From the NCBI GenBank assembly GCA_021081985.1, contig GCA_021081985.1_3639.1: 64,000 nucleotides of DNA; one strand, 5' to 3'. Made by a program: the position numbers and the translations under genes. This document shows, one piece after another, positions 27,694 through 51,804 of this stretch. The DNA comes from a phage. How positions within the stretch are numbered: the first letter of the stretch is position 1; every line of letters begins with the position of its first letter. The notes below the pieces were generated by a model. It made no database searches. It was not told the origin of the DNA and saw only the letters and a list, made by a program, of their open reading frames with translations.

Positions 27694-28947
27694 ATGACAG
27701 CAACAACAGGTGTTGGTGGTTTAATTTATGGTCGTGCATTGGTTGACCAGAAGACAGGAAAGAAAATAAATTTTGATGAACTGGGTGGCGGGAATATTCC
27801 AGAAGATATAACAGATCTTATTGCATCTAAAGCCCCAATAGAAAGCCCTTCATTTACAGGGAACCCTCAAGCACCAACACCGTTGGATGATGCTATTGGA
27901 AAGGAAATAGCTAATGTAGAATATGTGAGGGGTTTAATTGCAAAATTGGCTGACTCAGCGCCTGAAACATTGGATACTCTCAATGAATTAGCGAAGGCAT
28001 TAGGTGATGACCCTAACTTTGCGACAACCATAACTAACGCTCTTGCTGGTAAACAACCATTGAGTGAAATACTGACATCTTTGTCAGGATTGATTACTGC
28101 TGGAAATAAACTAGCTTATTTCAGTGATAAAAACGTAATGGCTTTGGCAAATCTCTCCGCTGTTGGTCGAGTTATCATAGGGCAAGACTCAAAAACTGGT
28201 GTTCTCGATTATCTGGGGATAAAAACCGCTGCCGCAAAAGATGTACAAAGGGATATCTACGATACCACAGAAGGGGTGGTATCTTTACCAGGGGCATTTG
28301 GTTTTGGTGCGTTTTTTCCTACGGAGAAAGAAGTTGTTTTTCAAGAGAAGAATGGGCCAGAGGAATGGGTTTCTTGGTTGAGAAGTGCACAACCTGGTCG
28401 CTACCTTGTTCGCCAAGATTTACCTTCAGGTGGCACACCTATTATTAAAGGGATTACTGCTTTCAAAGGTATGGTTGAGGTATTGTCACCATATCCAGCA
28501 GAGAATGCAGAGCAGGCAGCAAAAAATAGTAAACATGCCTATTTTTATGGCATAAATGGGGAGTTGTACCATTATCGCTTACTGACTATTTTTGCCAATG
28601 GTGACTGGGTGAATATAAAAGGGCAATTCTCTTCTTTGCAGTCTACGGTAGGCAATTCTTGGGGGAGTCCTGATGTTGGAGGAATAATGTTAGGAGTGTA
28701 TCTTGGCGCTTCAGACACTGATTCAAACAGAAAACTTGTTCGTGGTCAGACTATCCCAGGATCCCGCATAGGGTGTATAACTCTTTACAGCAAAGTTTCC
28801 GCAACAGGTGCATATCAAAGTACACCAGTTTCTGTTACACACAGTACTGAAACACAGAGAGGTACGTTTATAGCCTTATCCGGTTCACCAAGCAATAGTA
28901 ATGGTACTGATACAGGTTATATTGGCCTTTTTATGAGGATTGCATGA
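27694..28947 (+). CDS. tail fiber protein
   Basis: 417 aa; conserved fiber motif SPSFTGNPQAPTP...IANVEYV; N-terminus MTATTGVGGLIYGRALVD. Confidence 0.6.
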   Translation: MTATTGVGGLIYGRALVDQKTGKKINFDELGGGNIPEDITDLIASKAPIESPSFTGNPQAPTPLDDAIGKEIANVEYVRGLIAKLADSAPETLDTLNELAKALGDDPNFATTITNALAGKQPLSEILTSLSGLITAGNKLAYFSDKNVMALANLSAVGRVIIGQDSKTGVLDYLGIKTAAAKDVQRDIYDTTEGVVSLPGAFGFGAFFPTEKEVVFQEKNGPEEWVSWLRSAQPGRYLVRQDLPSGGTPIIKGITAFKGMVEVLSPYPAENAEQAAKNSKHAYFYGINGELYHYRLLTIFANGDWVNIKGQFSSLQSTVGNSWGSPDVGGIMLGVYLGASDTDSNRKLVRGQTIPGSRIGCITLYSKVSATGAYQSTPVSVTHSTETQRGTFIALSGSPSNSNGTDTGYIGLFMRIA

Positions 28948-29516
28948 TGCTAGATATTAAAGATATCAAGTCTCCACAGTATCTTCTTAATGGCGACGTT
29001 GATTGTCTGGTACTTTTTGATGGTTTTTCTGATTATCTTCCATACACCGCTTCCAGCAACGACTATAGTGAAACTGGGAAAGCAGTTTGGGATTCCTTAC
29101 AGTCTGGTAATTTTGGGGAGATTGCCCCGTATGTAGTAAACCCTCAATTTATCGAGGCATTAAAGCAACAGATGTTATCAGAAATAAAAGAGTGGAGAAA
29201 ACTGGAAGAAAGCTCTACAGCTATTGTTTCTTATAATGGTGCAAGGTATGATGTCAATAATGCAACCCTTGGTCGTATTTATCCAGTATTATTAGCACAA
29301 AAAGCATCCTCGGCTAGACAAGCTGTGGTTTGGAGAGATGTTGATAACAAACCTGTAGAGATGAGTAGCTCTGAATTTGAAAATCTTGTTGTAGCTATGT
29401 CTTCCGAGTTGGCAACTAAGAATGATTCAATATACATCAAGCAACGAGAAATGAAAGATCAAGTGCTTTCAGCCTCTACGGTTGAGGAATTACAAAGGAT
29501 AAAAATTGGGTGGTAG
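28944..29516 (+). CDS. hypothetical protein, fiber-associated
   Basis: 190 aa, overlapping start/stop with both neighbours. Confidence 0.4.
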   Translation: MMLDIKDIKSPQYLLNGDVDCLVLFDGFSDYLPYTASSNDYSETGKAVWDSLQSGNFGEIAPYVVNPQFIEALKQQMLSEIKEWRKLEESSTAIVSYNGARYDVNNATLGRIYPVLLAQKASSARQAVVWRDVDNKPVEMSSSEFENLVVAMSSELATKNDSIYIKQREMKDQVLSASTVEELQRIKIGW

Positions 29517-31297
29517 CTATGGATTATAAGGATAAAGTTGTCAATGCTGAAGTCATACTTCCAGATGGGCATAGTATTGGAGGATCAGGACTCCCAAGCC
29601 AATCTTTTAAATTATACACAGAAGACACCGCGACCATAAAACTTTCAGGTAATGGTGAAAAAGCAACACCACTTAAAGGTGTTGTTGTGGTGGCAGAAGA
29701 TGAAAATAATGCTCTCCAAGCTGGAGATAATGGGTTAGCTGTTAAGGTTAGCCCTGCTGCAAATAACCTGTTGGAGTTGAAACAAGGGGCATTATATGTA
29801 ACAGCGCCCGAAATAAATATCCCTATATCTCCTAAAGAAGGAAATGCTTTAACAAATCTGACTTCTGAAGGTGAAGAGGGGTTGTATGTTGCACCTACCA
29901 AAGTACAAGGATGGCTTTATGATCCTGCGCCTGGTGTTGCAGCTTTGCCTGGAGCTTTCGGCTACGGAATGACAAATCCTGGAGCAATTTCACTTATTGC
30001 TTACAGTCTTGGCGATGTTGCACGTTCTGCCCATAACCTACACCCAGGTAGGTATTATACTTTCACCACACGATCTGAGGAAATGACCGGAATAACAGAA
30101 ATTATCTGGCTGGATAATGGCTGGGGCGACAAAACCAGCCAGACAGCAACAAAGCTGGTTCTGTTTTTTGGAAAAGACGGTCGTATGAAGTATACAATCC
30201 GTGGCGACAATCCAAGGGAGCCAGCAGTGTGGTATGATTTGTTAACTGCCAAACAAGCGAATATTCATGATCGCACGGCTGGTGTTGCAGCCATACCGGG
30301 AAGTTTTGGGTACGGTATGGCAGCGAGCGATGGTGTCACCTTATCGTTGCTAAACATTGATGAGATCGCTTCTCTTGCTAATCAGACCATGCCGGGGAGG
30401 TATTATGCCCATATACAATTCCCAGCAAACTCTGGCGTATTTGAAATAATATGGCTAGATAATTGGCAAAATGATAAAACTTCAGCAACGGCAAGTAAAT
30501 TGATCTTGTTTTATGGCGCGGATGGTAGTGTTAAGTATACAATTAGAGGCTCAGACCCTAGTACCCCTGTTTCCTGGGTAGACCTTGGAGGAAGTTCTGC
30601 CACCTATTCACTATCTATCGGCACAGTTTCCTCTTTGGAAAGTGGGCAACAGGCAACCGCATCAATAACTGGTGATTCTCCTTCACAAGTTCTTAACTTA
30701 GGTATCCCTAAGGGTGCTGATGGACAAACAATAAAATCTGTTAATGCTGTTGTTAAAGAAATAGACAGTGCACAACAGGTAACACTGACTTTTACAATGA
30801 CAGATGATTTAAGTCAACAGGCGAGCTTTAATATCCCATTTTCTCCTCAGCCGACTATGAAGTTGTCAGCAACATCTGGGAATTTCTCTTTCAATTATAG
30901 CGATACACCTTCAGCGAAAAAAGCAGCGGGGAGATCTGGGTCTTCTATATATTTGAAAACAACAGTTGATCTGAACAGATCAACTGCTGGCAGTACAGAT
31001 GTTATGGTGGATGTTCGTTTGACAGAGATACCTTGTACGGAAGACGGTACGTATCTTGATTATGATATCTATGCAGAATACCCAAGTGTTGTCGGGTCAG
31101 GGCAACCCACAGTGGCTGTATGGCTTATTCTACCAACAGTTCCCACGCATACCATTGATCCCAAGACGAAGACAATAACTAAACTTCTTCGTGGTGATGG
31201 TTTATCAGGACTTAATGGAATCATTCCTATTGCAGGTGCAGACGAACAAGTCCACGAATTTAAATATTTCTTGCAATATTCTTATCTGAACAACTAA
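29510..31297 (+). CDS. tail fiber or structural protein with internal tandem domain duplication
   Basis: 595 aa; two ~100-aa repeats (ALPGAFGYGM...IIWLDNGWGDKTSQTATKL and AIPGSFGYGM...IIWLDNWQNDKTSATASKL). Confidence 0.5.
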   Translation: MVAMDYKDKVVNAEVILPDGHSIGGSGLPSQSFKLYTEDTATIKLSGNGEKATPLKGVVVVAEDENNALQAGDNGLAVKVSPAANNLLELKQGALYVTAPEINIPISPKEGNALTNLTSEGEEGLYVAPTKVQGWLYDPAPGVAALPGAFGYGMTNPGAISLIAYSLGDVARSAHNLHPGRYYTFTTRSEEMTGITEIIWLDNGWGDKTSQTATKLVLFFGKDGRMKYTIRGDNPREPAVWYDLLTAKQANIHDRTAGVAAIPGSFGYGMAASDGVTLSLLNIDEIASLANQTMPGRYYAHIQFPANSGVFEIIWLDNWQNDKTSATASKLILFYGADGSVKYTIRGSDPSTPVSWVDLGGSSATYSLSIGTVSSLESGQQATASITGDSPSQVLNLGIPKGADGQTIKSVNAVVKEIDSAQQVTLTFTMTDDLSQQASFNIPFSPQPTMKLSATSGNFSFNYSDTPSAKKAAGRSGSSIYLKTTVDLNRSTAGSTDVMVDVRLTEIPCTEDGTYLDYDIYAEYPSVVGSGQPTVAVWLILPTVPTHTIDPKTKTITKLLRGDGLSGLNGIIPIAGADEQVHEFKYFLQYSYLNN

Positions 31298-31307
31298 GGG
31301 GATAATT

Positions 31308-31565
31308 ATGGCAACAACAGGTGTGGCTGGTAAAGTATATGCATCAAGCCTTGTTGATATAAAAACTGGAAAATCTGTGAAAATCGAAGATATTATTGCT
31401 GGAGGCTCAGATAGCTATGTTCTTCCAGCGGCTACGGAATCAGTATTAGGAGGTGTTAAGAAAGCACAAACACAAGCAGATTCTGTGGCTTCAGATGTCT
31501 CTACGTTGGTCAACGATTTTAATGCTTTGCTTGCCAAGTTGAAAGCCGCTGGTATTATGTCGTGA
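31308..31565 (+). CDS. short fiber-like protein
   Basis: 85 aa; N-terminus MATTGVAGKVYASSLVDIKTGK parallels the N-terminus of the 27694 fiber. Confidence 0.4.
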   Translation: MATTGVAGKVYASSLVDIKTGKSVKIEDIIAGGSDSYVLPAATESVLGGVKKAQTQADSVASDVSTLVNDFNALLAKLKAAGIMS

Positions 31566-31570
31566 TAAAA

Positions 31571-31596
31571 AAGACCCTTCGGGGTCTTTTTATTTT
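31571..31596. terminator. bidirectional rho-independent terminator
   Basis: AAGACCC-ttcg-GGGTCTT with T-runs on both sides, between convergent genes. Confidence 0.75.
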
Positions 31597-31994
31597 AGGA
31601 GTTCCTGTACTCCTTTATTCAAATTTGCATTAATATACGGTTCACGCCCATTCTTATAGAAAGTACAGATGTATTTCCCAGTGTAAGATTTTTTTCCTGA
31701 GATAATTGCGACATCATCAAAATATTGATATGCTTCTGCTTGCTCTGCAATTCTGCCTTCAAAGCCTGATGACACAACAATCACGTCTGGTTTAAATGCT
31801 TCTCTGAATCTCTTATCGCAAGATAATTGTACAATACGGCTAATTGCCTCATCTTTTTCTTCTGGTGACAACCAACTTGCCTCGACAGATTTATAATCAT
31901 TAATGTCTGGGTTATTTTTCACATATTGGAGAGTCCCCGCTGCAATAACAGCACAGACGCACAGACCAATTGTAATTTTTAAAATATTTTTCAT
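31590..31994 (-). CDS. lipoprotein on opposite strand, candidate superinfection-exclusion protein
   Basis: 134 aa; signal peptide with Cys-containing lipobox region ITIGLCVCAVIAAG; only minus-strand gene inside the plus-strand tail module. Confidence 0.55.
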   Translation of the reverse strand: MKNILKITIGLCVCAVIAAGTLQYVKNNPDINDYKSVEASWLSPEEKDEAISRIVQLSCDKRFREAFKPDVIVVSSGFEGRIAEQAEAYQYFDDVAIISGKKSYTGKYICTFYKNGREPYINANLNKGVQELLK

Positions 31995-32121
31995 AAATCC
32001 TCCATAGCAGTTGTTGTGTTTATCTTACCTACGGAATTTTTCGTGTCAAGCGTTTTTAATGACAAAAATTGTATTTTGTGATAATATAGTTACTAACAAG
32101 TAACATAAAATGGAGAGTTAG

Positions 32122-32640
32122 ATGACAGACCAAGAAATTGTTGATTACATCAGGCTCCTGCTTGGGTCAATATCCCCAGAGGCACTACCTGATGAAGTTA
32201 TCATGGCATTCCTTGAGATGGAGAAAAAAAGAGCAAACTGGCCTAACCCATCATCCACGCCTTGCGACATGTGGAGAGTGGTCTATAACACAATGGTGGC
32301 TGTATTAAGATGGTTAATTCTTCAAGAGATAAATTCTGGCGAGGCATCCATCACAGAAAGATTGGAAAAGATAGGTGATGAGACAATACAGGTGAAAGGC
32401 GGATCGTCATACCAGAACTGGAAAGATTTTCTGGACTGGCTACTGCAAAACCCTGATTACGTCAATAGCTGCCTGAATGGTGTCTCTGGTTTGGTTATTG
32501 TGGGCGGTGTGCGACAGGATGAGTTTTGGCGTGTTAAGAGTAATCCTAACTCAAGAAGCCCGTTTGATGTTTCCGGTATAGTTCCTCAAACAGGAGTTCC
32601 CGGTATTCCTCGGAGATACCCAAAACACAGGTATTATTGA
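32122..32640 (+). CDS. hypothetical head-tail joining protein
   Basis: 172 aa, position between fiber genes and tail genes. Confidence 0.4.
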   Translation: MTDQEIVDYIRLLLGSISPEALPDEVIMAFLEMEKKRANWPNPSSTPCDMWRVVYNTMVAVLRWLILQEINSGEASITERLEKIGDETIQVKGGSSYQNWKDFLDWLLQNPDYVNSCLNGVSGLVIVGGVRQDEFWRVKSNPNSRSPFDVSGIVPQTGVPGIPRRYPKHRYY

Positions 32641-32705
32641 CAATCGTATTCCTAATTATTGATTTTGCTTGGATAATGTGGTAAAATACCTTAACGGGAG
32701 TTCTT

Positions 32706-33182
32706 ATGAGAACAAAATTTAAATCTCATCAAGATTTAAGTGCTTTGGAGAATTTTTATAACTCTGTACAGCAACTTGATAAAAAACAAGTCTCCTATGG
32801 TTATTATGATGACCCACACTATTCAGGACTAAATACTGCAACTCTGGCAGCTATCCATGAACAAGGCTGGAATAATCTTCCAGCCCGTACATTCATAACT
32901 AGCGCGGCTGTGTCCTTTCAAAAGGATTTGGAGAAATTACAGAAGGAGTTATTCGGCACGTTAGCATCTGGAAGTAATAATCCAACCCCAATGCTGAAAA
33001 AAATTGGTAAAGCAGGTGCTGAAAAAATTAAGTTTGTAATAGACTCTGGGCTTTTCCCTCATAATACTGTATCAGATGCATGGGCAGATGTCAAAGGTTT
33101 TAGTGCAGCTATGTATCATTATGGGGATTTAAGAGATTCCACAACTTATAAGATTTCGAACAGAAGAGGTTCAGGGGCGTAA
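32706..33182 (+). CDS. hypothetical head-tail joining protein
   Basis: 158 aa. Confidence 0.4.
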   Translation: MRTKFKSHQDLSALENFYNSVQQLDKKQVSYGYYDDPHYSGLNTATLAAIHEQGWNNLPARTFITSAAVSFQKDLEKLQKELFGTLASGSNNPTPMLKKIGKAGAEKIKFVIDSGLFPHNTVSDAWADVKGFSAAMYHYGDLRDSTTYKISNRRGSGA

Positions 33183-33185
33183 ATT

Positions 33186-33620
33186 ATGGCGGGATACAAA
33201 CTTATAGGCAAGAACAAATTGATACCCAGAGTTACCATGAAAGGTAGACACAGGCAGTTCAAAAAGACAGACTTAGATAATCCATTTGAAAATGGTGGGT
33301 TGGATATTGAGTATGTTGAATTTGATGTACCTGAATGTGTCGTTCAACCTATTAGTGGTAAAGCAGCTAGGGATTACACGTCCCAATTAGTTCCTGAAGG
33401 TGGTAGGCAGTATGATTCCTTTACTGTGTATTCATCTGTGATGTTAAAAGGCCCAGTTGAAGGATCTGATAACATGGCTGATCAGATTCTATTAATGAAC
33501 TCTCGTGGTGAGATGGAGTGGTTCACAGTTATTAAATCTGATTTGTATCAGACCACAGGTGTCTCTAGGTTCAGAGCTTATGTGGTGGCAATACCAGAAG
33601 GGACAAACGGAGGTATTTAA
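33186..33620 (+). CDS. hypothetical tail completion protein
   Basis: 144 aa. Confidence 0.4.
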   Translation: MAGYKLIGKNKLIPRVTMKGRHRQFKKTDLDNPFENGGLDIEYVEFDVPECVVQPISGKAARDYTSQLVPEGGRQYDSFTVYSSVMLKGPVEGSDNMADQILLMNSRGEMEWFTVIKSDLYQTTGVSRFRAYVVAIPEGTNGGI

Positions 33621-34150
33621 TGACTGATTTTATCAGTGCAGATGAAATCTTCGATGCTTTGACGAAAACAATAGGTTCTTTTTGTAAAGAAGTTACTGGT
33701 AGGAAAGTCGTGCTGGCAGGGGAAGATGAAATACCTAAAGTTGATGGTGAGTTTATTCTAGTGGATCTTACTGCTGTAGATCAGCTTGACTGGCAATCAG
33801 ACGATGGATTTACTGATGATGGTCGAGCGATGACAGTCCATAACTATGAAATTGTATATACATTGACTGCTTATCGTGGTAAAGCACCAAATGCCCTAAG
33901 TCGTATTTTACAAGCTATGAACTTACCTTTTATATACGATAAGTATTTCCCAACTAATTCACCTTTTGCATATTCCTCCTCTTCAACAATATCTCGGTTG
34001 AGAGTTCCTTTGAATGTCCAAAAATATGAAACTCGGGCTGTAGTGCTGATAACTTTTAATGTTTGCTTTGCAGAAACAGACACTGGAGTTTTCGAAGATT
34101 TGGAAACCCTCAATGCGCAACTTTCATATCATTTTCCGAAAGAGGATTAA
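33620..34150 (+). CDS. hypothetical tail completion protein
   Basis: 176 aa, start overlaps previous stop. Confidence 0.4.
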   Translation: MTDFISADEIFDALTKTIGSFCKEVTGRKVVLAGEDEIPKVDGEFILVDLTAVDQLDWQSDDGFTDDGRAMTVHNYEIVYTLTAYRGKAPNALSRILQAMNLPFIYDKYFPTNSPFAYSSSSTISRLRVPLNVQKYETRAVVLITFNVCFAETDTGVFEDLETLNAQLSYHFPKED

Positions 34151-34276
34151 AAGAAATATTTTGGTTATTGATAAGCACTGGCTTATTGGTGATCACGATG
34201 TGGAGAAATAACCCACAACACAGCACAAATAAGTGCTGGTCAATAACTGTACGTACAGAAATAAAAGAGGAAATCG

Positions 34277-35689
34277 ATGGCTTATAATGACAAGGTGGTT
34301 GATGTAACAGTCACACTTGGTACTCAACCAATCGACACAAAAGGGTTTGAAACCCCACTGTTCCTTGCGATCCATAATGTCTTCCCAGAAAGAGTTCGTG
34401 CTTATACCGAACTTAGTCAATTAGTTGATGATGGATTTGCTGTTGGAACACCTGCATATAATTATGCATCTAAGGCATTTTCTGGAACATTCCGTCCACA
34501 ATATCTGATGATTGGTCGCCAAGGCTTCACCAATACGGTTGTGGATTTTACAGACCAGACAAACACAGACCCAGAAACACCTGTAGCTCTAAACTTTGTG
34601 ACAGGGGCTTATCAAAAGAGCATACTTGTCAATGTAAATGCATCTTCAGAGCCTTCTACAATTGCTACATCTCTGGCTGACGCTATTAATGCGGATACAA
34701 CGCTGAAGACTGTACTTACGGCAACAGCAAGCGAGGCTAAAGTAACAATTGCCCCAAAAGATAGTGGCAAGTTTAGTGTTGGTAAAGACAGCGGAAATAT
34801 GGTCATCACCAATACCTCCGATGAGACAGTTTCTTCTGTTCTTCCGCAGGTTATGACCGCAAATGAGAACTGGTATTTTGTCAGCACTGAGTCACACACA
34901 AAAACATCTATCTTAAGTGCCGCCGCATTCGCCGCTGCAAATTACAAGATGCATGTCTACTCAACTGCGGATGAAAAATCTAAAACTGCTGATAGTGATT
35001 CCATCGCAGATGAACTGAAAGCTCTGCAATACGACACCTCTATTGGTATGTACGATCCGCTGGCAGACAGTGCCTATCCAGAAGGAGGAATTATCGGGGC
35101 GATGGCCTCAAATGATCCTTCCTATGGGGATTCTATCCACCTGAAGACTATGGACGGGGTTGTTGCTCCAACCTTGAGTGCAACGGAACGTATGACTATC
35201 TGGGGTAAGAATCTGAACTTCTACCGCATGATTAATGGTGTAGGATCCTTCTATGAAGGCAAATGCGCTTCCGGCAATTATGTAGATGTTGTGAGATTTG
35301 GTCACTGGCTTAAGTTCCGCACCGAAGAAAGTGTTTTCGGATATATGTCCCGCAGATCCAACATGGGCCTGTCTGTTAAAATGAGTGATGATGACCTCCC
35401 TAACCTGAAGTCTGTCATCATGAATAACCCTATCAACGTAGGTATTTCTAACGGAGCTATTTTAACAGGTTATGATGAGGTTAACAAGGTCTTCTTCGAC
35501 CCTGTAATCACAATCCCTCTGCGTGGAAGCATACCTACTAACGATCTGGCAGCACGTACACTTAACAACGTGAAAGTGGAACTGGTATACAACACACCAC
35601 TACATTTTGTCAAGATCCGTATGACTGTCATGCTGGACAAAACAGGTTCAAATTCTGGTAACGCACAGACAGTAACAGCAGGAGTGTAA
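34277..35689 (+). CDS. tail sheath protein
   Basis: 470 aa, followed by a ~150-aa tube-sized gene, chaperones and tape measure (PBSX/Mu-like order); by position and size. Confidence 0.5.
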   Translation: MAYNDKVVDVTVTLGTQPIDTKGFETPLFLAIHNVFPERVRAYTELSQLVDDGFAVGTPAYNYASKAFSGTFRPQYLMIGRQGFTNTVVDFTDQTNTDPETPVALNFVTGAYQKSILVNVNASSEPSTIATSLADAINADTTLKTVLTATASEAKVTIAPKDSGKFSVGKDSGNMVITNTSDETVSSVLPQVMTANENWYFVSTESHTKTSILSAAAFAAANYKMHVYSTADEKSKTADSDSIADELKALQYDTSIGMYDPLADSAYPEGGIIGAMASNDPSYGDSIHLKTMDGVVAPTLSATERMTIWGKNLNFYRMINGVGSFYEGKCASGNYVDVVRFGHWLKFRTEESVFGYMSRRSNMGLSVKMSDDDLPNLKSVIMNNPINVGISNGAILTGYDEVNKVFFDPVITIPLRGSIPTNDLAARTLNNVKVELVYNTPLHFVKIRMTVMLDKTGSNSGNAQTVTAGV

Positions 35690-35692
35690 TAA

Positions 35693-37038: not shown

Positions 37039-39411
37039 ATGGCGAATATCATAGTAACTAAAACCGTAAATGCTGTCGAGTGGTCTGTAGATCGCACCAG
37101 TTACGGTCGTGCAATGAAAGCTATAAAATCCCTGAAGAAGGAATGGGAAAAGACTAACAGAGCTTTCACTTCTAATAAAAGTAATCCGGCAGCAATTTAT
37201 AAACGTTCTGCGCAAGAGGCTCGTCTTGTAGCTAAAAGATTACACCAAACTGAACGTGCAGAGCAAGCAAAATCTACGGCACATGCTATTGCAATGGCAA
37301 AAAAGGAAGCTCGTGCTCGTGAACAAATAGCCAAAGTTGAGAGCGCGAGAAGAAAGCAAGCAGTAGCCAGACTAACAAACAGAAGAACACCTGAAGAACA
37401 AAAAGAATATAATGCATTAAAATCAAAGTTGAAGCAGATGGAAAAAACAGGTTCTGGATATGTAACAAATCCAGAAATATCTGCTGCCCGTCAAGCAAGA
37501 TTGCAGCAAGAACTTGCAGCAAGAAAGTCTTCAGGGTCTGCCTCTGGTATTGTTGGGGATCCTAATAGTCGTCACGATCCAAGTCTTGTGGCTGCCCAGA
37601 ACTCTGCTATGGAACGCTATCATAAATCTATTCCGAAAGAAAAAACAGCGGATGAGATTAAGGCAGAAAAAGATGCTAATAAGAAGAAAGAAAGAGAAGC
37701 GTTAAGAGCAGAAAGGATAAAGGCTGCAAAACAATCAACAATTGCTAATGCTGCTGTAAGACTTCGTGCTAAGTATGGTGATGATTTCAGGTCTAAAATT
37801 AAAGGTTATGATGATCTGGAAAAGAGATTTATGCAAAGCCAGACTATGAGAGCTTCTAATTTCCGTGCTGAATTGGCAGCAATGGAAACAGGACTCCGCA
37901 AAGCTAAGGCAAATACACTATCTCTTGATCAAGGATTGAAAAACCTTCGTAGCACATTAATTAGTGTTTCTGCTGCATACGGAGCTTTTAATGCTGCCGC
38001 AAGTGTTGTGAAAACAGGACAATTCTTTCAAGGCATGGAAGCTACCATGTTAATGGTTTCTGATGACTCAGAAGAAGCAGCGAAAAGAATACAGTTTGTT
38101 CGGGAGCAATCTTACAGATTGGGTTTGAATTTAAAAACCGCCGCCCAAGGTTATACCCAAATGTCCATATCTGCCAAAGGTGTTTTGAGCAAGGCGCAAA
38201 ATGACGAACTGTTCAAAGGTTTCTCAGAATATGCTACTGCACTTCAGGTTGATCCTGTAAAATACCAGCGTGGTATTACCGCTATCCAACAAATGATGGG
38301 TAAAGGTCAGATCATGGCTGAAGAATTAAAACAGCAGTTAGCCGAGGGTATTCCTGGTTCTCTTGATGTATTCCTTAAAGCCACACAAGAAGCATTCAAT
38401 GATTCATCTATAGACATTGCAAAATTAATGGATATGATGAAGAATGGAGAGCTAAAGGCTTCAAAAATTCTTCCTTTGGTCGCTAAGTATTATGCCGAGG
38501 CTGCAAGAAAAGGTGGTGCACTTACCAAGGCACAACAAAGCAACCGTGTTGCTATGCAGCGTTTACAACAAACATGGATGAACTTTCAAAATAAGATATT
38601 TGAAAGTGGATTTGGGGATGAATTAACTAAAACGTTTAATGATTTGTCTCACATGTTGGATGCTAAAGGACCGTTAGCTGAGAAAGTTGGACAATTTACT
38701 TCTGGATTCATAAAGGGCTTTATGGATATCGCACATACGATATCTAATGTCTGCATTTTTATAAATGCAGAATTAAACATGTATATCCCACAATGGATAA
38801 AGAAAAGTGAGACATTCCAAAAAGCGACTAACTGGGTAGGTTGGGGTCTCGGTGCTCTATTCTTCGCGACTTCCTTGGTTAGAGTATTCAGAATCTTGGC
38901 TAAAATTGCTGGAATAACGGGAACATTGAAAGTATTGAAGGATATCTTTGGTGATGGTGACGATAAACCTAAAAATCCAAGAAAACCAAGAATACCAAAA
39001 TTCCTGAGACGCGGTAAAGGTTGGCTCGGTTTAATAGCAACAGCCGCTATAGCAGCAACAGGTTTGGATGTTGATGACTCCGAAGAACCAAGTTCTGACC
39101 AAATACCTACAAAATCAATGCAGGAAGATTTTGTTAAGAACAGGAGTATTTCAGGCGGCCTTTCTCAATGGTGGGATAGTTTATGGGCTGGGCATATGCA
39201 GGATAAAGCCAACTATCTTCAATCCCATAATCTAATGCCTGGCGGATCTGCTACAGGTCAAACTGTAGCTCCTATGGTTATTCCTACCGAGCCTGTCAGT
39301 GGTGAAATAACAATTAAAATAGATGCTGGAGAATTACGGAATATGATTGACCAGCAAATAGAGACAGCTAATATGGATAACATTAATCTTATTCTTGCTG
39401 TCCCTCAATAA
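37039..39411 (+). CDS. tail tape measure protein
   Basis: 790 aa; long Ala/Lys/Glu-rich helical N-terminus, internal hydrophobic segment, located between chaperones and baseplate genes. Confidence 0.8.
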   Translation: MANIIVTKTVNAVEWSVDRTSYGRAMKAIKSLKKEWEKTNRAFTSNKSNPAAIYKRSAQEARLVAKRLHQTERAEQAKSTAHAIAMAKKEARAREQIAKVESARRKQAVARLTNRRTPEEQKEYNALKSKLKQMEKTGSGYVTNPEISAARQARLQQELAARKSSGSASGIVGDPNSRHDPSLVAAQNSAMERYHKSIPKEKTADEIKAEKDANKKKEREALRAERIKAAKQSTIANAAVRLRAKYGDDFRSKIKGYDDLEKRFMQSQTMRASNFRAELAAMETGLRKAKANTLSLDQGLKNLRSTLISVSAAYGAFNAAASVVKTGQFFQGMEATMLMVSDDSEEAAKRIQFVREQSYRLGLNLKTAAQGYTQMSISAKGVLSKAQNDELFKGFSEYATALQVDPVKYQRGITAIQQMMGKGQIMAEELKQQLAEGIPGSLDVFLKATQEAFNDSSIDIAKLMDMMKNGELKASKILPLVAKYYAEAARKGGALTKAQQSNRVAMQRLQQTWMNFQNKIFESGFGDELTKTFNDLSHMLDAKGPLAEKVGQFTSGFIKGFMDIAHTISNVCIFINAELNMYIPQWIKKSETFQKATNWVGWGLGALFFATSLVRVFRILAKIAGITGTLKVLKDIFGDGDDKPKNPRKPRIPKFLRRGKGWLGLIATAAIAATGLDVDDSEEPSSDQIPTKSMQEDFVKNRSISGGLSQWWDSLWAGHMQDKANYLQSHNLMPGGSATGQTVAPMVIPTEPVSGEITIKIDAGELRNMIDQQIETANMDNINLILAVPQ

Positions 39412-44559: not shown

Positions 44560-44569
44560 GGATGTTATT

Positions 44570-45247
44570 ATGGCAGACTATTTAAAAGATGTAAATCATA
44601 TACACACACTGCCAGATTTCGTTGAGGGAGGTATTGATTATCTCCCTGGTGATTTTCTGAAAGAGAAAAAGAATCTTGTAAAATTTCTGACAATATACCT
44701 TGAAAGATTGAAAGCTATTGATGAGATGCTTGTAAAGCTATCAGAAGGTAGATTATTAAGGAATGCCGCAGGGCTGAATCTTGATGAGATAGGTAATCAG
44801 GTTGGTATTGAGAGGAACGGGCTTGATGATGCCACCTATAGGGCAATAATAATGATCTTGGCTGCTGGATCTGCAAGACACGGTACAAGACCAGAGTTTA
44901 TTGAAACATTAGATCAACTGTTTGGTGTTGGAAATTTTACAACTTACAAAGGGGATAATTACCGTTTTGACGTAAACGTATCGAAAAGCTGTTTCGACTT
45001 AGCAGCAGCGATAGATGAGATACTTGACCTATTACCGTTACCAACTCACCTTAGACTAACAGAGTCTGTGGGTTTGGCGTTTGGCTTTAAGAATGACAAA
45101 CATGCACTTGGATTCGGATCTGTGGCAGAGAAATCAAGAACTGGGGATGGCGGTTTAGCCCATCTAGTTTACGTACCGGATCCACCAAGAACATCGGATG
45201 ACATCCTTATTTATGTTGACAATATCTCTGTAGATGCAACAGAGTAG
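44570..45247 (+). CDS. baseplate/tail protein (I-like)
   Basis: 225 aa following the J-like gene. Confidence 0.4.
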   Translation: MADYLKDVNHIHTLPDFVEGGIDYLPGDFLKEKKNLVKFLTIYLERLKAIDEMLVKLSEGRLLRNAAGLNLDEIGNQVGIERNGLDDATYRAIIMILAAGSARHGTRPEFIETLDQLFGVGNFTTYKGDNYRFDVNVSKSCFDLAAAIDEILDLLPLPTHLRLTESVGLAFGFKNDKHALGFGSVAEKSRTGDGGLAHLVYVPDPPRTSDDILIYVDNISVDATE

Positions 45248-45259
45248 AGGAGACCACAT

Positions 45260-47323
45260 ATGGCAGAGGCTATTTTCACAGCCAGAAGAGAAGATGACTC
45301 TGTAGCTGTCAGCTTTGACTATGAAACAATACCAAACACAGCTATTGCTGGAAGAGATTATACACCCAAGGTAGGTACGGCAACAATTCCTAAAGGGGAA
45401 AAGTCTGTACAGATACCTGTGGAGATAAAACAACATCCTAAAAACTCATTACCAAGAGAATTTACCTTAAAAATGAGTAATCCGTCTTTTGGTGCAAGGC
45501 TAGACAGGCTGGCTTCCAGATGTGTTATTAGCACCAAGGAGGATATGTCTGAGTTGGGGTGGGGAACAAAAGAAGAGAAAATGTTTCTACCTAAATATTG
45601 GACAATTGATTCTCAACCCACAGAAAGTTGCTCTATAATATCTAATGGTAATATACTTACAGCTTATATGACTAATAGAACTGTAAGCGGTTTAGCAGGG
45701 GTTATTTGGAGCACAAAAGATAAGTATGATCATAAAGGGATCTCTTTTCAAGATCACACAGATCTTCGAAACGCTAAGCTGTGGTTCGATATAGAGTTGG
45801 GCGACGGAATGCCTGATTTCAATAATGAGAAATTGACCCCGACATTAACCCTTAAACTTTTAGATGGGGCGACCCATTATATCCCTCTGTACGCTTATGC
45901 TGAAAATATCAGCGAGGATTATAAAAGAGCCACAATCAAACTTGATTTTTCAAATTTAAAATCTGGCCCTGATGTGAACGTGCCAGTGGATACCTCTCAA
46001 GTGGATCAGTTTTTCTTTTCTATGATATCTGAGAAGTATGCAGAAGGAGAAGATGTTGTCCCTAAAGAAAATCAGAACCTTATGTTGAAAATAACTCTTA
46101 AAGAGCCTGATACAGGCTATACAATGATGAGAGTTAATAATTTGACAATTCCTGCACATGATGTGCGTATGTGTACATCCTATGATGACATGTATAACCT
46201 GACACCTGAACGAGTGGTGGACAACTGCTTGAAACTTGGGTACAGGGATATGATAAACCACTATAATGGTATGTCGCATTATTACGAGTTCTCTTGGGAA
46301 AGCTCCGCATGGAAACTGAACAAAGATGTCCCTGTCAATAATGCAACCCTACAATGGATGAATAACTATTTCGCACTGACACGAGCAAATGGTTATAAGG
46401 TTATCAATTCTATTAGTTTTGAGTTGATGAGCACTGTATGTCCGGCAGAATGGGTGCAGCATGATTGGAATGATGCATTGGCTGAAACAGGCTATACACC
46501 TCCTAGTTGGGTATTATCACCTAATATTAATGAGGGTATGCAATATATCCAAAGTGTGATAAATAAAATAGCAGCTACGTGCGAACAAGTTAACCAAGTT
46601 GTTATCATTCAGATAGGAGAACCTTGGTGGTGGTATAATACAGCTACTAACTTACCTTGTGTCTATGATTATACTACAAAAGTTCGTTTTAATGAAGAGA
46701 CTGGATTGTATGCTCAAGACATGGGAACAATTTATGACTTTAAGACCGGAACACCCTATGATGAGTATGTAGATTTTCTAAGACAGTGCTTAGGGGAGCG
46801 AGTGGTAAAATTCGGTGCTGATCTTAAAAAATCTTATCCTAATGCAAAAATAACACTTTTACCGTTTTTACCATCCATTATTGGTAATGGTATTATGGAA
46901 AAGATAAATTTCCCTAGTGGTAGTTATACACCTGAGAATTTTGATTTCTATTGCTCCGAGTGCTATGACTGGTTACTTCAAGGAAAAATGGAAAAATCAT
47001 TTCAGGCTATCACCATTCCGCGAGATGTCTTAAAATTTGAAGAAGATAAGATACATTATCTGGCAGGATTTGTTCCAGATGAAGGGCTAGCACCATTATA
47101 CGGATTTGACCCTAATTCTAATTATAGAGAATATCTTTGGAAAATGATTATAGGGAACATCGTTCTTAATGAGTTTAAGTTTCCAGGTATTTATCAATAC
47201 ATATGGGCGTATCCACAAGTAATGCATGATTCTATAACAGTGCACAACTCTCAATCCGCAGTCTTTCATATGGGGCATACAGCATTGAAAGGGTATTTAA
47301 AAGATACCCCACCAGAAGTTTAA
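45260..47323 (+). CDS. large tail/receptor-binding protein, possibly with an enzymatic domain
   Basis: 687 aa, Trp/Tyr-rich central region (IGEPWWWYNT); function not recognised. Confidence 0.45.
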   Translation: MAEAIFTARREDDSVAVSFDYETIPNTAIAGRDYTPKVGTATIPKGEKSVQIPVEIKQHPKNSLPREFTLKMSNPSFGARLDRLASRCVISTKEDMSELGWGTKEEKMFLPKYWTIDSQPTESCSIISNGNILTAYMTNRTVSGLAGVIWSTKDKYDHKGISFQDHTDLRNAKLWFDIELGDGMPDFNNEKLTPTLTLKLLDGATHYIPLYAYAENISEDYKRATIKLDFSNLKSGPDVNVPVDTSQVDQFFFSMISEKYAEGEDVVPKENQNLMLKITLKEPDTGYTMMRVNNLTIPAHDVRMCTSYDDMYNLTPERVVDNCLKLGYRDMINHYNGMSHYYEFSWESSAWKLNKDVPVNNATLQWMNNYFALTRANGYKVINSISFELMSTVCPAEWVQHDWNDALAETGYTPPSWVLSPNINEGMQYIQSVINKIAATCEQVNQVVIIQIGEPWWWYNTATNLPCVYDYTTKVRFNEETGLYAQDMGTIYDFKTGTPYDEYVDFLRQCLGERVVKFGADLKKSYPNAKITLLPFLPSIIGNGIMEKINFPSGSYTPENFDFYCSECYDWLLQGKMEKSFQAITIPRDVLKFEEDKIHYLAGFVPDEGLAPLYGFDPNSNYREYLWKMIIGNIVLNEFKFPGIYQYIWAYPQVMHDSITVHNSQSAVFHMGHTALKGYLKDTPPEV

Positions 47324-47338
47324 GAAGGAGATACTTTT

Positions 47339-48409
47339 ATGGCTACACCAAGTATACCAATCGAGATTTGGGCAGCGGGGGATGTAATTCTCCCTAATAC
47401 TCACGGGGAGAATAAAATAAGACCTATTGACGACCTTTGGTTAAAAGGTTGGGATATGGGAGAAAAACCAGCTTGTGAAGAATTTAACTATGTTCTTCAT
47501 ATGATGACAAGTTGGATAAAATATGTTACAGGGGATCAAATTCCTGAATTAGATACAAGATTTTTAAGAAGAAGTGAAAATCTGTCTGATTTAGCTGACA
47601 AGGAAACATCCAGAGTCAACCTTGATGTGTGGAGCAGATCAGAGGCCGATAACCGTTACGTGAATGTAACGGGAGATACAATGACAGGAGCTTTGTCATT
47701 GCCGAGGTTGAATTTTCAACCTTCTGAAACAGATACTGCGTATATCACAACTACAAATCCGGCTTCTGACTGGACGTACTGGGATTTTGTTCTTGGAGAT
47801 AATCCAGGAACAGCAGGGACAAACGGTGTAGATTCTATACGTTTCCGATTCTCTCCTTCAGGTAACTCTGGGATGTTCACTATGATGGAGCTTAATGCTA
47901 TTAGCTCCTCAGCGGCTTTGTGTAAAGTAACAGGAAATGTTGTTGCCACAGGCACTGTACAAGGAACTAATGTTAATGGCACAAATGCAACATTCACCAC
48001 AACAAGAACATCCTCTTTGACGGCTACAGGACAAATTCAAGGCCAAACTATTGTAGCAACAAGCTCATTAACAACACCATCTGCAAGAGTTAATGGAACA
48101 GCAAACGTAAATGCACTAATTGTAAATAATAACTCTGCTACGGTTGCCGGGAGAAATATCGTAAGATCTGTTAATGGTGTAGGTGCGGATGGTAACGGAA
48201 ATGTTAACTTACCAACAGGAAGTGTTCAGCAAATAAGACTTGGTAATCGTTTCTCTGCTGGGGTTGTTGAGTCTACGTTTTATCCTGGACATGTAATGAC
48301 TGGCTGGGCATTTGGTAATAAAAAGGAATTGAGAGGTGGTTCGTATTACACTGCTCCTTTGCAATATCTTGTGAATGGTCAATGGGTAACAGTGACAAAT
48401 TTAAACTAA
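47339..48409 (+). CDS. tail fiber protein
   Basis: 356 aa, Thr/Asn/Gly-rich repetitive C-terminal half. Confidence 0.5.
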   Translation: MATPSIPIEIWAAGDVILPNTHGENKIRPIDDLWLKGWDMGEKPACEEFNYVLHMMTSWIKYVTGDQIPELDTRFLRRSENLSDLADKETSRVNLDVWSRSEADNRYVNVTGDTMTGALSLPRLNFQPSETDTAYITTTNPASDWTYWDFVLGDNPGTAGTNGVDSIRFRFSPSGNSGMFTMMELNAISSSAALCKVTGNVVATGTVQGTNVNGTNATFTTTRTSSLTATGQIQGQTIVATSSLTTPSARVNGTANVNALIVNNNSATVAGRNIVRSVNGVGADGNGNVNLPTGSVQQIRLGNRFSAGVVESTFYPGHVMTGWAFGNKKELRGGSYYTAPLQYLVNGQWVTVTNLN

Positions 48410-48412
48410 GGG

Positions 48413-48964
48413 GTGCATATGTACAAGATCTATGGTAATTTTCAGCCTTACACACCTGAAAGAACAGAGTATAATTCGGCCTTCATAGATACAGGGGCAG
48501 GTTTCCTTAAAGATAGTGATGGCAGAGATTGGTATGAATTATCAAAAGAACTAGCTGATAACAAAGCGGAAAATCAAAAATTTTTGCTTCTGACTTCGGA
48601 TGATATAGTCCTCTGTGTCTCACAAGACCCGACCGCTTATTTTCCTTATGGAATGAAAATAGTAGTTATTGAGAATCTTACTGTAAACTTAGACCCTAAA
48701 CTCGGGCATATAAAATTTACAGATGGAGAATTTGTTGATTATAACAAAGAAGCGGTAGAACAAGCTCAATCAATTATAGAAACAGAAATGATGTGGGCTT
48801 CTAATCAAATCTCTACCTTGGAGGATATGATCTCTATGGGATTGGGAACAGAGAGTAGAAAAAAATATCTGGAAAAATTAAAAGAGTATCGCATAAAACT
48901 GTTTTCGTTAGACCCTGAAGAAGATATGGATATTTCTTTACCAGACAGACCTTCTAAAAAATAA
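48413..48964 (+). CDS. tail fiber assembly-like protein
   Basis: 183 aa directly after a fiber gene. Confidence 0.4.
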   Translation: MHMYKIYGNFQPYTPERTEYNSAFIDTGAGFLKDSDGRDWYELSKELADNKAENQKFLLLTSDDIVLCVSQDPTAYFPYGMKIVVIENLTVNLDPKLGHIKFTDGEFVDYNKEAVEQAQSIIETEMMWASNQISTLEDMISMGLGTESRKKYLEKLKEYRIKLFSLDPEEDMDISLPDRPSKK

Positions 48965-48975
48965 GGAGACAAGGA

Positions 48976-49290
48976 ATGTCTATTGACCTATTTGCTATCT
49001 TAAAAGCCGTATGGGGCGTTTTGACGTTTTTCTTAGTTGGTGTTCTGAAGTTAACATACTCAGACTATAAAAAGACACAGCAACGTCTTGATGAACTTGA
49101 TAGGGACATCATAAGAATTAAGGCAGAGATGGTCACTAAAGAGAAACTTGATGAGATTCTTGATAAAAAACTGAAAGCTGTCCGCGATGATGTTTCAGAT
49201 TTTAGAAAAGACTTAAAAGAGGATGTGAGCAGTTTGAGAGTTGATCTTATAGACCAGCTTAAAATTCTTATAGAGAGTCAAATGAAATGA
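48976..49290 (+). CDS. small membrane protein with coiled-coil
   Basis: 104 aa; N-terminal TM helix LFAILKAVWGVLTFFLVGVL then charged helix. Confidence 0.4.
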   Translation: MSIDLFAILKAVWGVLTFFLVGVLKLTYSDYKKTQQRLDELDRDIIRIKAEMVTKEKLDEILDKKLKAVRDDVSDFRKDLKEDVSSLRVDLIDQLKILIESQMK

Positions 49291-49760
49291 TAAGTTCTGC
49301 ACTGTACTTTATATGCTTTGCAGTGCTACTTCTCGATAATGATAAAGGGATCCGAGCCATGTCAGTATTTGGCATGGTTCATATCGTGGCAGAGAATATA
49401 TTATACTGGTGGTTCTGTTCCCATATCTACGCATTTGACTTGTCACTCTACCTAACCTTTTGTTGGTTCTTGGATATATCTCTGATTTTCTTTACTGCAT
49501 GTGCTTTGACAGGATGGAGAAAAAAGCTAATGCTTGCATTATCTCTTCCTGTTCTGTTTTGCCAAATTTTAGTTATGCAGTTCCCATTTATTTTACCAAG
49601 CGCATTAGGCTTCACGATAAATTCATCATATCCGACATTTATGGAAGCTCTTTTATTATGCGCCGCATACAAAAGCGGTACAATAAAAGAATTGCTTGAG
49701 ACTTCTGTTGTTGTTGGTTTCATAATTATAGCCAGAATTGTTCCTGGAGTAAATTATTGA
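49287..49760 (+). CDS. polytopic membrane protein
   Basis: 157 aa with about four hydrophobic segments. Confidence 0.45.
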   Translation: MISSALYFICFAVLLLDNDKGIRAMSVFGMVHIVAENILYWWFCSHIYAFDLSLYLTFCWFLDISLIFFTACALTGWRKKLMLALSLPVLFCQILVMQFPFILPSALGFTINSSYPTFMEALLLCAAYKSGTIKELLETSVVVGFIIIARIVPGVNY

Positions 49761-49775
49761 GGATTCTAATGTATT

Positions 49776-50039
49776 ATGCTAAAATCAATATTGAAATTTT
49801 TAAAAGATCTTGTCAGATCCCCAGTAAATCCAGAGAAGGCATCTCACACAAAATTTTGGAGTAATATCGGATTAGCTGCAATGACAGCAGTTTTTTTAGA
49901 TTGGGGTTTCAAAGGCACATTAACGGAGTGGTATATGTGGGTGTATGCCCCCACAGTAGCTGCCCCGCAGTTAATAAGTAAGTTAATATCTCTACGTTGG
50001 GGTGTAGAAGCACAACGTAGGGAAGAGTCAGACCAATAA
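49776..50039 (+). CDS. small membrane protein
   Basis: 87 aa with one hydrophobic segment. Confidence 0.35.
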   Translation: MLKSILKFLKDLVRSPVNPEKASHTKFWSNIGLAAMTAVFLDWGFKGTLTEWYMWVYAPTVAAPQLISKLISLRWGVEAQRREESDQ

Positions 50040-50049
50040 GGAGATTCTT

Positions 50050-51804
50050 GTGGCAGACATGACTAAATTTGAACAGGCGGTCGATCAGGTTGTAGAAGAT
50101 TCTGAACGCCTTCATAAAGTTGTCAATGGAGCAGCTACTGAAACTGTAGTTACAGAGGATGGCAGTCTGATACCTACAGTCAGAAAAGCATTTCTTGACA
50201 ATTTATTCTTTAAAACACCTCCACTGCCGTGGGTTGCTGGACAACAGACGACGGTATTTAATCAGTTGTATGCCTATACAGGGGAAAGAGGTGTCCAATG
50301 GTGGTATGCACCCGGTGCGACAGAGAGTTCGCCTGTAACACTACCTCCTAATCCAGTCAATAATGTTAACTGGAGATTATACAACGATTTAGAATCTATG
50401 TCTCAGCTATTTGCGCCTATTGACAGCCCTATTTTTACAGGGAACCCTCAAGCACCAACACCATCAGCGGATAGTAACAGTACAACTCTGGCAACAACAC
50501 AATTCGTTACTAGAGCTATTGCTACTGCTTTGGCTGGAATTGCGGGTGGCAACGGTACATTCGCGGATCTTACTGTAACAGGTTTAGCGAGTCTTAATAC
50601 GCTTTCTGTTGGCGGTGTGTCAACATTTAATGGGCCTGTTAATGCTGAAAATCAAACAGGAAAATTCCAGAATCTTATCTTAACAAAAGATAATTCAAGT
50701 CTATCTTTTGCCTACAGTGATGATTCTAACCCGACGTTTATAAAAACAAGGCTTGAAGCATACTCAGCGCAGACACATCAGTTACATACAGACATCATCA
50801 TAAACGGTGTGCCAGTAGCAGACAATACAACAATGTCTTTCACAGGTCTTGGTAATAATACCTTCGACTATGTTTACATTACAGGTAACTCTAAAAAAGA
50901 CCCTTCTGAAGCTCGTCTTAAAGTCTTTGGGATGACAGAACTTGAAAACTTAAAGATCACAGGTACTGTAACAGGACTTTCTTTTTCTGTCAATGGGGAA
51001 GATATCTCGCCTAATTCTGTAACAACGGCACAAGGGGTTACTGTAGGTGGTGATTTACAAGTCAATGGTAACACCAATCTCAACAGTACAACATGTGAGA
51101 GCTTAGAAGTTACTAACAACCTTGTTGTTAATGGACAAGCCAGCCTCAAAGATTTCTCCTCTACAACTGGTAATGTCACAGGGCTATTAACTTTGGGGGA
51201 GGGATTTACTGCTACTGGCGACGGGTCTGTAGGCGGTGATCTAACTGTCAACGGAACTTCAACCCTTGGTAAGATAATATCTGATGGCGATGTGACTTTA
51301 AATAGATCTTCTGGCACAACAACAGTAAACAATTTGGTTGTTAAGGGGACTGTATCTGGTATTACGTTTGATTTGACAGGACAAAACGTAAACGTAGCAT
51401 CTCTTTCTGCTCAAAGCAGTGTAACAACAAATCAGTTATTTGTTAACGGCCAGGCACAACTTTCTTCCACCAATGTAAGTTTTCTAACTTTACAATCGGA
51501 AGAGGTTGACGATCCAACAGCAACATGGACACCAAGCGGCACATCCAACATTTATAATATCACAGTGAATAAAAATCTGACAATCGGAGCATGGCCTGAT
51601 CCACAGCAACCTTTCTCCGCTATGATTTATCTGACGCAGGATGCCACAGGTGGACACAGTGTGATTCTGGATCCTAATTATGTTGTCCTTAACAGCGAAA
51701 CTGTTAATACAGCAGCAAATTCAGTTACCATCCTTCAATTAACCTTTAACGGTGTTGAAGATGGGGTTGTTGACACCATTATTGTCCGTAGACCACAACC
51801 ATAA
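50050..51804 (+). CDS. tail fiber protein
   Basis: 584 aa; fiber motif SPIFTGNPQAPTP...LATTQFV; Thr/Gly/Asn-rich beta-repeat C-terminal half. Confidence 0.6.
   Translation: MADMTKFEQAVDQVVEDSERLHKVVNGAATETVVTEDGSLIPTVRKAFLDNLFFKTPPLPWVAGQQTTVFNQLYAYTGERGVQWWYAPGATESSPVTLPPNPVNNVNWRLYNDLESMSQLFAPIDSPIFTGNPQAPTPSADSNSTTLATTQFVTRAIATALAGIAGGNGTFADLTVTGLASLNTLSVGGVSTFNGPVNAENQTGKFQNLILTKDNSSLSFAYSDDSNPTFIKTRLEAYSAQTHQLHTDIIINGVPVADNTTMSFTGLGNNTFDYVYITGNSKKDPSEARLKVFGMTELENLKITGTVTGLSFSVNGEDISPNSVTTAQGVTVGGDLQVNGNTNLNSTTCESLEVTNNLVVNGQASLKDFSSTTGNVTGLLTLGEGFTATGDGSVGGDLTVNGTSTLGKIISDGDVTLNRSSGTTTVNNLVVKGTVSGITFDLTGQNVNVASLSAQSSVTTNQLFVNGQAQLSSTNVSFLTLQSEEVDDPTATWTPSGTSNIYNITVNKNLTIGAWPDPQQPFSAMIYLTQDATGGHSVILDPNYVVLNSETVNTAANSVTILQLTFNGVEDGVVDTIIVRRPQP

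Follow-up and report, generated by a model that had tools for sequence, protein, structure and literature searches.

Two fibre genes of a phage were found to share an identical run of 29 nucleotides (nt), which was probably transferred from one gene into the other by short-tract gene conversion (or template switching). Both genes lie in a stretch of 64,000 nt (NCBI GenBank assembly GCA_021081985.1, contig GCA_021081985.1_3639.1), referred to below in its full length as the window. The source phage is an rV5-like myovirus of the genus Avunavirus (Vequintavirinae) with 93-97% identity to Escherichia phages Av-05 and 18-1-2. The presumed recipient, fibre-1, starts at 27694, and the presumed donor, fibre-2, sits 22.6 kb downstream, amid baseplate genes. 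The features that carry this finding are the following.

27694..28947, plus strand: fibre-1, 417 amino acids (aa), consisting of an N-anchor and a Stf/gpH-type shaft with receptor-binding body (phrog_2636, tail fibre).
27832..27942, plus strand: joint motif of fibre-1 (APIESPSFTGNPQAPTPLDDAIGKEIANVEYVRGLIA), the sole region resembling fibre-2 and the place where alleles diverge.
27853..27881, plus strand: 29-nt patch, fibre-1 copy, equal to 50434-50462 and read as the gene-conversion recipient.
50050..51804, plus strand: fibre-2, 584 aa, a conserved baseplate long tail fibre and phiTE_241 orthologue, read as the patch donor.
50434..50462, plus strand: 29-nt patch, fibre-2 copy, within the fibre-2 joint motif at 50413-50523 and read as the resident or donor copy.

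The 29-nt segment (TTTACAGGGAACCCTCAAGCACCAACACC) occurs at 27853-27881 and at 50434-50462 and encodes FTGNPQAPTP in both open reading frames (ORFs). A preliminary description of the window had reported a 28-nt segment common to the two fibre genes, and this was confirmed, the exact run being 29 nt. The 28-mer itself was present exactly twice (27854-27881 and 50435-50462), both times on the plus strand and in frame, and none of 100 shuffled sequences gave a match. In the 60 nt on either side of the run, identity in register was only 43%. The self-comparison that had been proposed gave the same picture: self-blastn of the whole window aligned 27832-27881 with 50413-50462 (86% over 50 nt), and this patch was the sole fibre-to-fibre DNA match. 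The two proteins were similar over one 37-aa motif only (APIxSPxFTGNPQAPTP..., 20 of 37 residues identical).

At the protein level this match was uninformative on recent exchange, because the motif is common in fibres of unrelated phages. A codon-degenerate search found FTGNPQAPTP in 45 stretches of unrelated IMG/VR viral contigs with a GC content of 33-69%. The context AP[LI]xSPxFTGNPQAPTPxxxDxxxSIATTxFV was constant in all 45, and they differed from the window at 3-9 of 9 synonymous sites. The joint SPxFTGxPxxPTP, with approximately 20 further residues, lies directly behind the anchor in many phage fibres. The Pfam repeat PF03406 was considered as the identity of the motif and rejected, as neither motif segment gave a match at E <= 10; in the Salmonella prophage side tail fibre P0134, residues 189-228 match PF03406, and that match stops where the SPxFTG motif starts.

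The direction of transfer was indicated by the residues and codons within the patch. In sister genera, [FL]TGNPQAPTP is retained at the same place in the long tail fibre (LTF) orthologues of fibre-2. The fibre-1 body has homologues with FTGTPTTPTP, LTGTPSTPTP and similar sequences; the NPQA signature is foreign to these homologues. An unconverted Avunavirus allele (P0120) reads TTC ACG GGT ACT CCC ACA ACA..., with 2 of 13 codons equal to those of fibre-2. The size of the patch varied among fibre-1 alleles, from the 29 nt of the window through 32 nt (P0119 and P0121, extended 3') and 38 nt (L055) to 41 nt (18-1-2 and ERZ27258095). In the longer patches the codon TCA is changed to ATT or ATC, which is exactly the state of fibre-2. 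When the window was compared with 18-1-2, 9 of the 38 mismatches in the first 600 nt fell within 27 nt 5' of the patch (P ~4e-6), and seven of these nine (CCT, GAC, AGT, ATC) render 18-1-2 identical to fibre-2. Across 19 relatives the fibre-2 patch was near-invariant; the only variants were GGA and ACG, both rare. These findings establish how the sequences are related, where the junctions lie and which polarity the signatures have.

They suggest a scheme in which fibres are assembled from interchangeable modules, namely an anchor, a short joint motif, a shaft with receptor-binding domain, and a chaperone. A joint stretch of 29-41 nt would have been copied non-reciprocally from the conserved baseplate fibre gene at 50050 into the unrelated fibre gene at 27694, likely by short-tract gene conversion or by template switching during replication. 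The recipient's ...TPTT... would thereby have become ...NPQA..., leaving the 29-nt identity. The different patch sizes may mean that the transfer occurred more than once or with differing borders. The molecular mechanism is one that we infer from the compared sequences, and the patch itself is presumably neutral in function.

Several points weigh against this interpretation. The tracts are very short (29-41 nt), and the patch codons are mostly those preferred by the phage, so that chance identity is unlikely (~1e-4) but not impossible. Approximately eight independent fibre-1 alleles of this type were examined, some with shared ancestry, and the direction of transfer is based on comparative signatures, not on a dated phylogeny. 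Moreover, in one genome (L055/L079) the fibre-1 patch (ATT, GGG) is unlike its own fibre-2 (ATC, GGA) and equals the commoner population variant; therefore the donor could be a co-infecting relative, or the genomes could have reassorted later. Co-variation of the two patch copies within a genome holds in 18-1-2 and ERZ27258095 and fails in L055/L079, and given this failure it was not used as a main argument. Complete E. coli RefSeq genomes were no source of paired loci, since the 5' region of fibre-1 had no match in them.

The possibility that the patch arrived with an imported allele, a foreign fibre gene from a phage or prophage that already bore the joint and had a common external source with 50050, draws on the fact that the cassette around fibre-1 is clearly rebuilt from imported modules, and it would accommodate the L055 patch that does not match its own fibre-2. 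However, no external gene with these codons was found in the IMG/VR searches, where the exact 28-mer occurred only in the Av-05 contig, once, with no external donor. The patch is also flanked in both directions by sequence of the fibre-1 type, 5' by the constant APIESPS and 3' by the 417-type body, and it specifically matches Avunavirus fibre-2 variants, so that import is unlikely. A coincidence without any transfer of DNA, in which both genes keep a strongly selected fibre motif and a shared codon bias produces the identity, would fit the widespread peptide and the fact that ACA, CCT, CAA, GCA, CCA and TTT are the commonest codons of the phage. Yet the probability of all 10 codons matching, given identical amino acids and the phage's own codon usage, was ~9e-5, and GGG and AAC are minority codons. 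In a control, the LTF of the Seunavirus Csp-D17 encodes LTGNPQAPTP and nevertheless shows 5 synonymous differences in 9 codons. Coincidence is also at odds with NPQA residues that are foreign to the fibre-1 lineage, and with three-base codon swaps and clustered changes that recreate the fibre-2 sequence; we consider it decidedly unlikely.

The preliminary description had favoured recent recombination or domain shuffling among three fibre loci, 27694, 31308 and 50050. Part of this stands: the 29-nt identity is a recombination footprint and the N-termini are modular. Recent domain shuffling among the three loci was not upheld. A recent exchange of whole domains within the genome would account for a common motif and a common N-terminus, but 27694 and 50050 have no similarity beyond the 37 aa. 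Their identity is limited to one short motif without extended protein similarity, which points to the movement of a 29-41-nt patch and not of a domain. Likewise, the N-anchor DNA of 27694 and 31308 is only 53% identical, and 31308 is conserved across genera with the same architecture, which makes it an old partner in N-terminal sharing and not a recently shuffled fibre locus. Whole-domain exchange is accordingly rated as very improbable. The near-invariance of the 29-mer in fibre-2 could also be taken to mean that it is conserved as DNA because it functions as a nucleic-acid element, be it a regulatory site, a signal for a recombination hotspot or the target of a nuclease. Against this, fibre-2 is conserved at 94-97% as a whole, many functional fibre-1 alleles lack the 29-mer (L051, L054, L057, L058, P0120), and it occurs nowhere else in the window; such a role is scarcely credible.

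Another short patch common to two unrelated genes was observed at 25353-25390 (plus strand) and 57398-57435 (minus strand), with 95% identity over 38 nt. It encodes EKAQARI[QK]ELEE[ED] and lies in a scaffold-like gene (24546-25547) and in a minus-strand 176-aa ORF (57211-57741). This may be a further micro-conversion like the fibre patch.

Apart from the joint, the two fibres are unrelated. Residues 39-417 of fibre-1 showed 53% identity over 389 aa to P0134, and residues 34-177 were approximately 50% identical to the P1 S constant segment, lambda-like Stf and P2-like gpH. By its homologous shaft and receptor-binding body, fibre-1 is a Stf/gpH-type fibre. It carries no Stf/gpH attachment domain, PF08400 or PF12571, and no Pfam match was obtained on 27694; the Stf/gpH homologues do carry PF08400 or PF12571, and their alignment to 27694 begins only at its residue 39. 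Fibre-2 matched 9cuy_g, the phiTE long tail fibre modelled on the baseplate, with E 3.3e-84 over residues 8-575, and is a phiTE-type long tail fibre, with PF26208 and PF26209 recorded on its cluster representatives. All Avunavirus fibre-2 copies form one 90% cluster, and orthologues are present in other genera.

Fibre-1 opens a hypervariable cassette (27694-31297) placed between capsid genes and neck genes. It is preceded by genes for a scaffold-like protein, Dec (25566-25988), the major capsid protein (MCP, 26012-27025) and a Phage_Inh_N protein at 27157, and the cassette is followed by adaptor, neck, sheath and baseplate genes. Within the locus, fibre-1, the DUF4376 protein, a second fibre and an 85-aa gene follow one another, all co-oriented.

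27694..27783, plus strand: N-anchor of fibre-1, residues 1-30, constant in every cassette allele.
28944..29516, plus strand: DUF4376 protein, 190 aa (PF14301, E 5.6e-11; phrog_1141).
29510..31297, plus strand: second fibre, 595 aa, with a phiTE_215-like N-terminus, PGAFGFG domains and a conserved C-terminal domain.
31308..31565, plus strand: 85-aa head-fibre-type protein, with the N-anchor at 31308-31394 followed by a phi29 gp8.5-type tip at approximately 31416-31562.

The likely true start of the second fibre is the ATG at 29519 (MDYKDK...). Its N-terminal module of approximately 130 aa resembles phiTE_215 (BLASTP E 3.7e-10) and the N-terminus of EspYZU12 ORF60; phiTE_215 is presumed to be the "third putative fiber" of the phiTE paper. 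Two tandem PGAFGFG domains (~29891-30622) resemble fibre-1 residues 185-320 and form an internal repeat spaced 348 nt. In virion mass spectrometry of phage W70, three syntenic genes were found to encode virion proteins; the counts did not scale with copy number and do not give the location of the proteins.

In the Av-05 reference (L001, NC_025830 37740-50250), fibre-1 is preceded by opposite-strand replication and DprA-like genes, whereas capsid genes precede it in the window and in all other relatives, which suggests that the Av-05 gene order is a rearrangement or a misassembly. The Av-05 genome announcement also states 97% identity to RB69, which is at odds with the classification in Vequintavirinae.

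The alternative fibre cassettes that had been anticipated in relatives were found in abundance. More than 100 contigs carry the 85-aa gene. In ten of the relatives, where this gene is 99% identical, the interval that separates it from the Inh_N gene took seven architectures.

Architecture 1: a single 464/465-aa gene.
Architecture 2: a single 316-aa gene.
Architecture 3: 292 aa, DUF4376 and 202 aa.
Architecture 4: 384 aa, DUF4376 and 552 aa.
Architecture 5: 417 aa, DUF4376 and 651 aa.
Architecture 6: 502 aa and 474 aa.
Architecture 7: 241 aa (collagen-like), DUF4376 and 534 aa.

Every first ORF starts with MTATTGVGGLIYGRALVDQ[KR]TGKKINF, and divergence begins after residue 25-53. The junctions fall at the joints. 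The 464-aa gene of L051 equals nt 1-629 plus nt 3032-3864 of the L054 locus, with a 25-nt overlap inside the joint motif. This amounts to a 2.4-kb in-frame deletion, by which a receptor-binding domain, the chaperone and the greater part of the second fibre have been lost. In a comparable fusion in L059 the overlap is 10 nt and lies immediately 5' of the motif, and in P0124 the fusion lies at the PGAFGFG motif common to fibre-1 and to the two tandem domains of the second fibre. Relatives rebuild the cassette by recombination at the joint motif and at a second joint, IYDxTxGVxxxPGAFGFG. The outcomes are allele swaps, in-frame deletions and gene fusions, with the N-anchor of approximately 30 aa kept in every allele. 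Judging from the sequences, the alternative cassettes probably affect host binding.

The DUF4376 protein is probably the assembly chaperone of fibre-1. Its 198-aa type and its 189/190-aa type go with different receptor-binding domains upstream, and L052 combines both types in a chimera. The gene itself was observed to be mosaic (L052 8664-9260 compared with L054 7281-7877 and L055 7463-8032).

Two other sources of fibre variation were considered and rejected. An invertible switch of the Cin/Gin/Min kind was rejected on the finding that the best inverted repeat in 27000-32100 was 30 nt at 73%. Self-blastn gave no inverted repeats there either, and all genes of the cassette point the same way; no search for an invertase covered the whole window. 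A diversity-generating retroelement was rejected on the finding that the locus contains no template/variable direct repeats (of approximately 100 nt or more). The variation among relatives consists of module replacement, not of point changes at adenines.

The first ~35 residues of 27694 and 31308 were 46% identical, with 16 invariant columns (BLASTP E 9e-8), in agreement with the preliminary description, according to which the 85-aa ORF repeats the N-terminus of the 27694 fibre. In the window, the N-terminus profile matched these two ORFs only. The DNA of the anchor was 76% identical over the first 38 nt, and because identity over its whole length is only 53%, the sharing is judged from the sequence to be an old modular arrangement and not a recent copy. 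The anchor is rare: its profile found only 19 clusters among 1.84 billion representatives, in which it is joined to collagen-like segments, head-fibre tips, Stf-like bodies or deletion derivatives.

The 85-aa protein matched PF11133 (Phage_head_fibr) with 64.2 bits against a cut-off of 24.6 (E 1.7e-17) at profile positions 210-277, and in the PDB it matched 6qvk/3qc7 (phi29), 7qof (crAss001) and 9d82 (Dec gp45) with E 5e-10 to 9e-9. The gp8.5 capsid-binding base and helix-turn-helix shaft (PF11133 profile positions 1-209) are absent from it. Among PF11133 members the tip module is carried on mutually unrelated, lineage-specific N-termini. The 85-aa gene is also present in Seunavirus, in Klebsiella and Proteus Mydovirus-type phages, in Erwinia phages and in others. 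A reading of this ORF as a fibre remnant was rejected in favour of a small head-fibre-type gene conserved across several genera.

The anchor could be linked to a capsid structure through phiTE. In that phage, phiTE_217 (pTE217) was assigned by mass-spectrometry abundance, and not by a model, to an unmodelled "Pagoda" density at the hexamer centres of the capsid (PMC11972413). A search of the phiTE and phi92 structure papers for head, neck or whisker fibres turned up nothing apart from the Pagoda density. The gene phiTE_217 is syntenic with the anchor locus, the order being MCP, Inh_N, a fibre, a 216-aa protein and then phiTE_217. A single-profile hmmsearch of the N-anchor against phiTE ORFs gave a rank 1 match with a non-significant E of 0.2, and it took a profile-profile comparison with Certrevirus relatives for homology to be accepted: hhalign of the anchor sets against pTE217-type N-termini gave a probability of 94.2% and E 1.2e-7, with 30 columns in register. 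Conservation of the Certrevirus pTE217-type protein is confined to its first 32 residues, the remainder being swapped, and CR3, SSBI34 and POP15 encode anchor-plus-collagen proteins. Fibres with the anchor may sit on the capsid because their N-terminus is homologous to that of the phiTE Pagoda protein, and the N-anchor probably docks there if the putative assignment of pTE217 is correct. We propose only tentatively, as a possibility that we would not yet favour, that the anchor binds hexamer centres and that the 417-aa protein and its alleles are head fibres with cassette-swappable adhesins competing with the 85-aa fibre for ~120 sites. If true, this would be a hypervariable host-binding organ on a myovirus head, built from genuine tail-fibre shafts, receptor-binding domains and chaperones.

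Other features of the window were recorded in passing. A cluster of 14 tRNA genes, all on the plus strand, occupies 9627-15958. In the region 18632-22281 the terminase large subunit is apparently split: the ORF at 21241-22281 contains Terminase_6N from profile position 130 on together with Terminase_6C, and an Endonuclease_7-family gene (20488-21093) lies directly upstream of it; no fragment for the N-terminal part of the terminase was located. The phiTE terminase shows a matching arrangement, but with an HNH gene. A 48-nt element that is 94% identical and contains the hairpin CATCCCTAtGGGATG is intergenic at 20383-20430 (plus strand) and 63341-63388 (minus strand), one copy standing immediately 5' of the endonuclease VII-family gene. 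The very AT-rich segment 5454-5628, with imperfect direct and palindromic repeats between divergent genes, may serve as a promoter or an origin. At 53796-53826, between the convergent genes 51822-53789 (plus strand) and 53822-54214 (minus strand), a perfect GC-rich palindrome leads into a T-run (AAAAGGGAGCTAAAAGCTCCCTTTT); this is probably a bidirectional terminator. The tape-measure gene of the window is intact (790 aa, 37039-39411), and in some close relatives it is broken by an HNH endonuclease gene into 436 aa, HNH and ~330 aa (L057 15731-18942; L060 8793-12007; L063 5794-9044).

The mechanism is known from the classical mosaic fibre genes (P2, P1, Mu, lambda and T-even phages), and the locus is new; an Avunavirus head-module cassette with its anchor was not met in the searchable literature. 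What the locus adds is a view at base-pair level, in which joints of 10-41 nt support both ectopic gene conversion and productive module exchange. The phage group consists of lytic E. coli and Salmonella phages used for biocontrol, and the cassette 27694-31297 and the constant 30-aa anchor are natural engineering points: any shaft with a receptor-binding domain appears to be tolerated behind the anchor and joint. Should the anchor dock on the capsid, the host-range models of Vequintavirinae, which now consider baseplate fibres only, would need a head-borne component, and the unmodelled Pagoda density of phiTE would gain a family and a testable function.

Conserved blocks common to unrelated fibre genes as exchange points are shared with the mosaic tail-fibre genes of P2 (H), P1/Mu (S), lambda (Stf) and T4, reportedly described by Haggard-Ljungquist et al. 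in 1992 and Sandmeier in 1994. In contrast to these, the anchor of fibre-1 is a 30-aa peptide shared with a head-fibre protein and not PF08400 or PF12571, the fibre-1 gene lies in the head module, and the event in the window is an intragenomic 29-nt patch and not an inter-phage block exchange. The T-even distal fibre and adhesin genes, for which Tetart et al. are said in 1998 to have described the gp37/gp38 'His boxes' and glycine-rich motifs, resemble the present locus in using short conserved motifs as joints that swap specificity modules, here with 10-25-nt overlaps. The present locus differs from them in its motifs (SPxFTGxPxxPTP and PGAFGFG), in the lack of a gp38-type adhesin and in phage family. 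The 85-aa protein has the C-terminal tip module of approximately 57 aa in common with phi29 gp8.5, the crAss001 head fibre (7qof) and mycobacteriophage Dec gp45 (9d82), but lacks their N-terminal capsid-binding parts. Fibre-2 is an orthologue of phiTE_241 (9cuy/9mjn) with the joint motif at the same place, although it is shorter (584 compared to 793 aa) and its joint reads FTGNPQAPTP where that of phiTE reads FVGNPRVPTP. Finally, the anchor proteins differ from the phiTE Pagoda protein pTE217 in their C-terminal parts, which are unrelated, and resemble it in syntenic position, in a homologous N-terminus of approximately 30 aa and in the combination of a conserved anchor with a swapped remainder.

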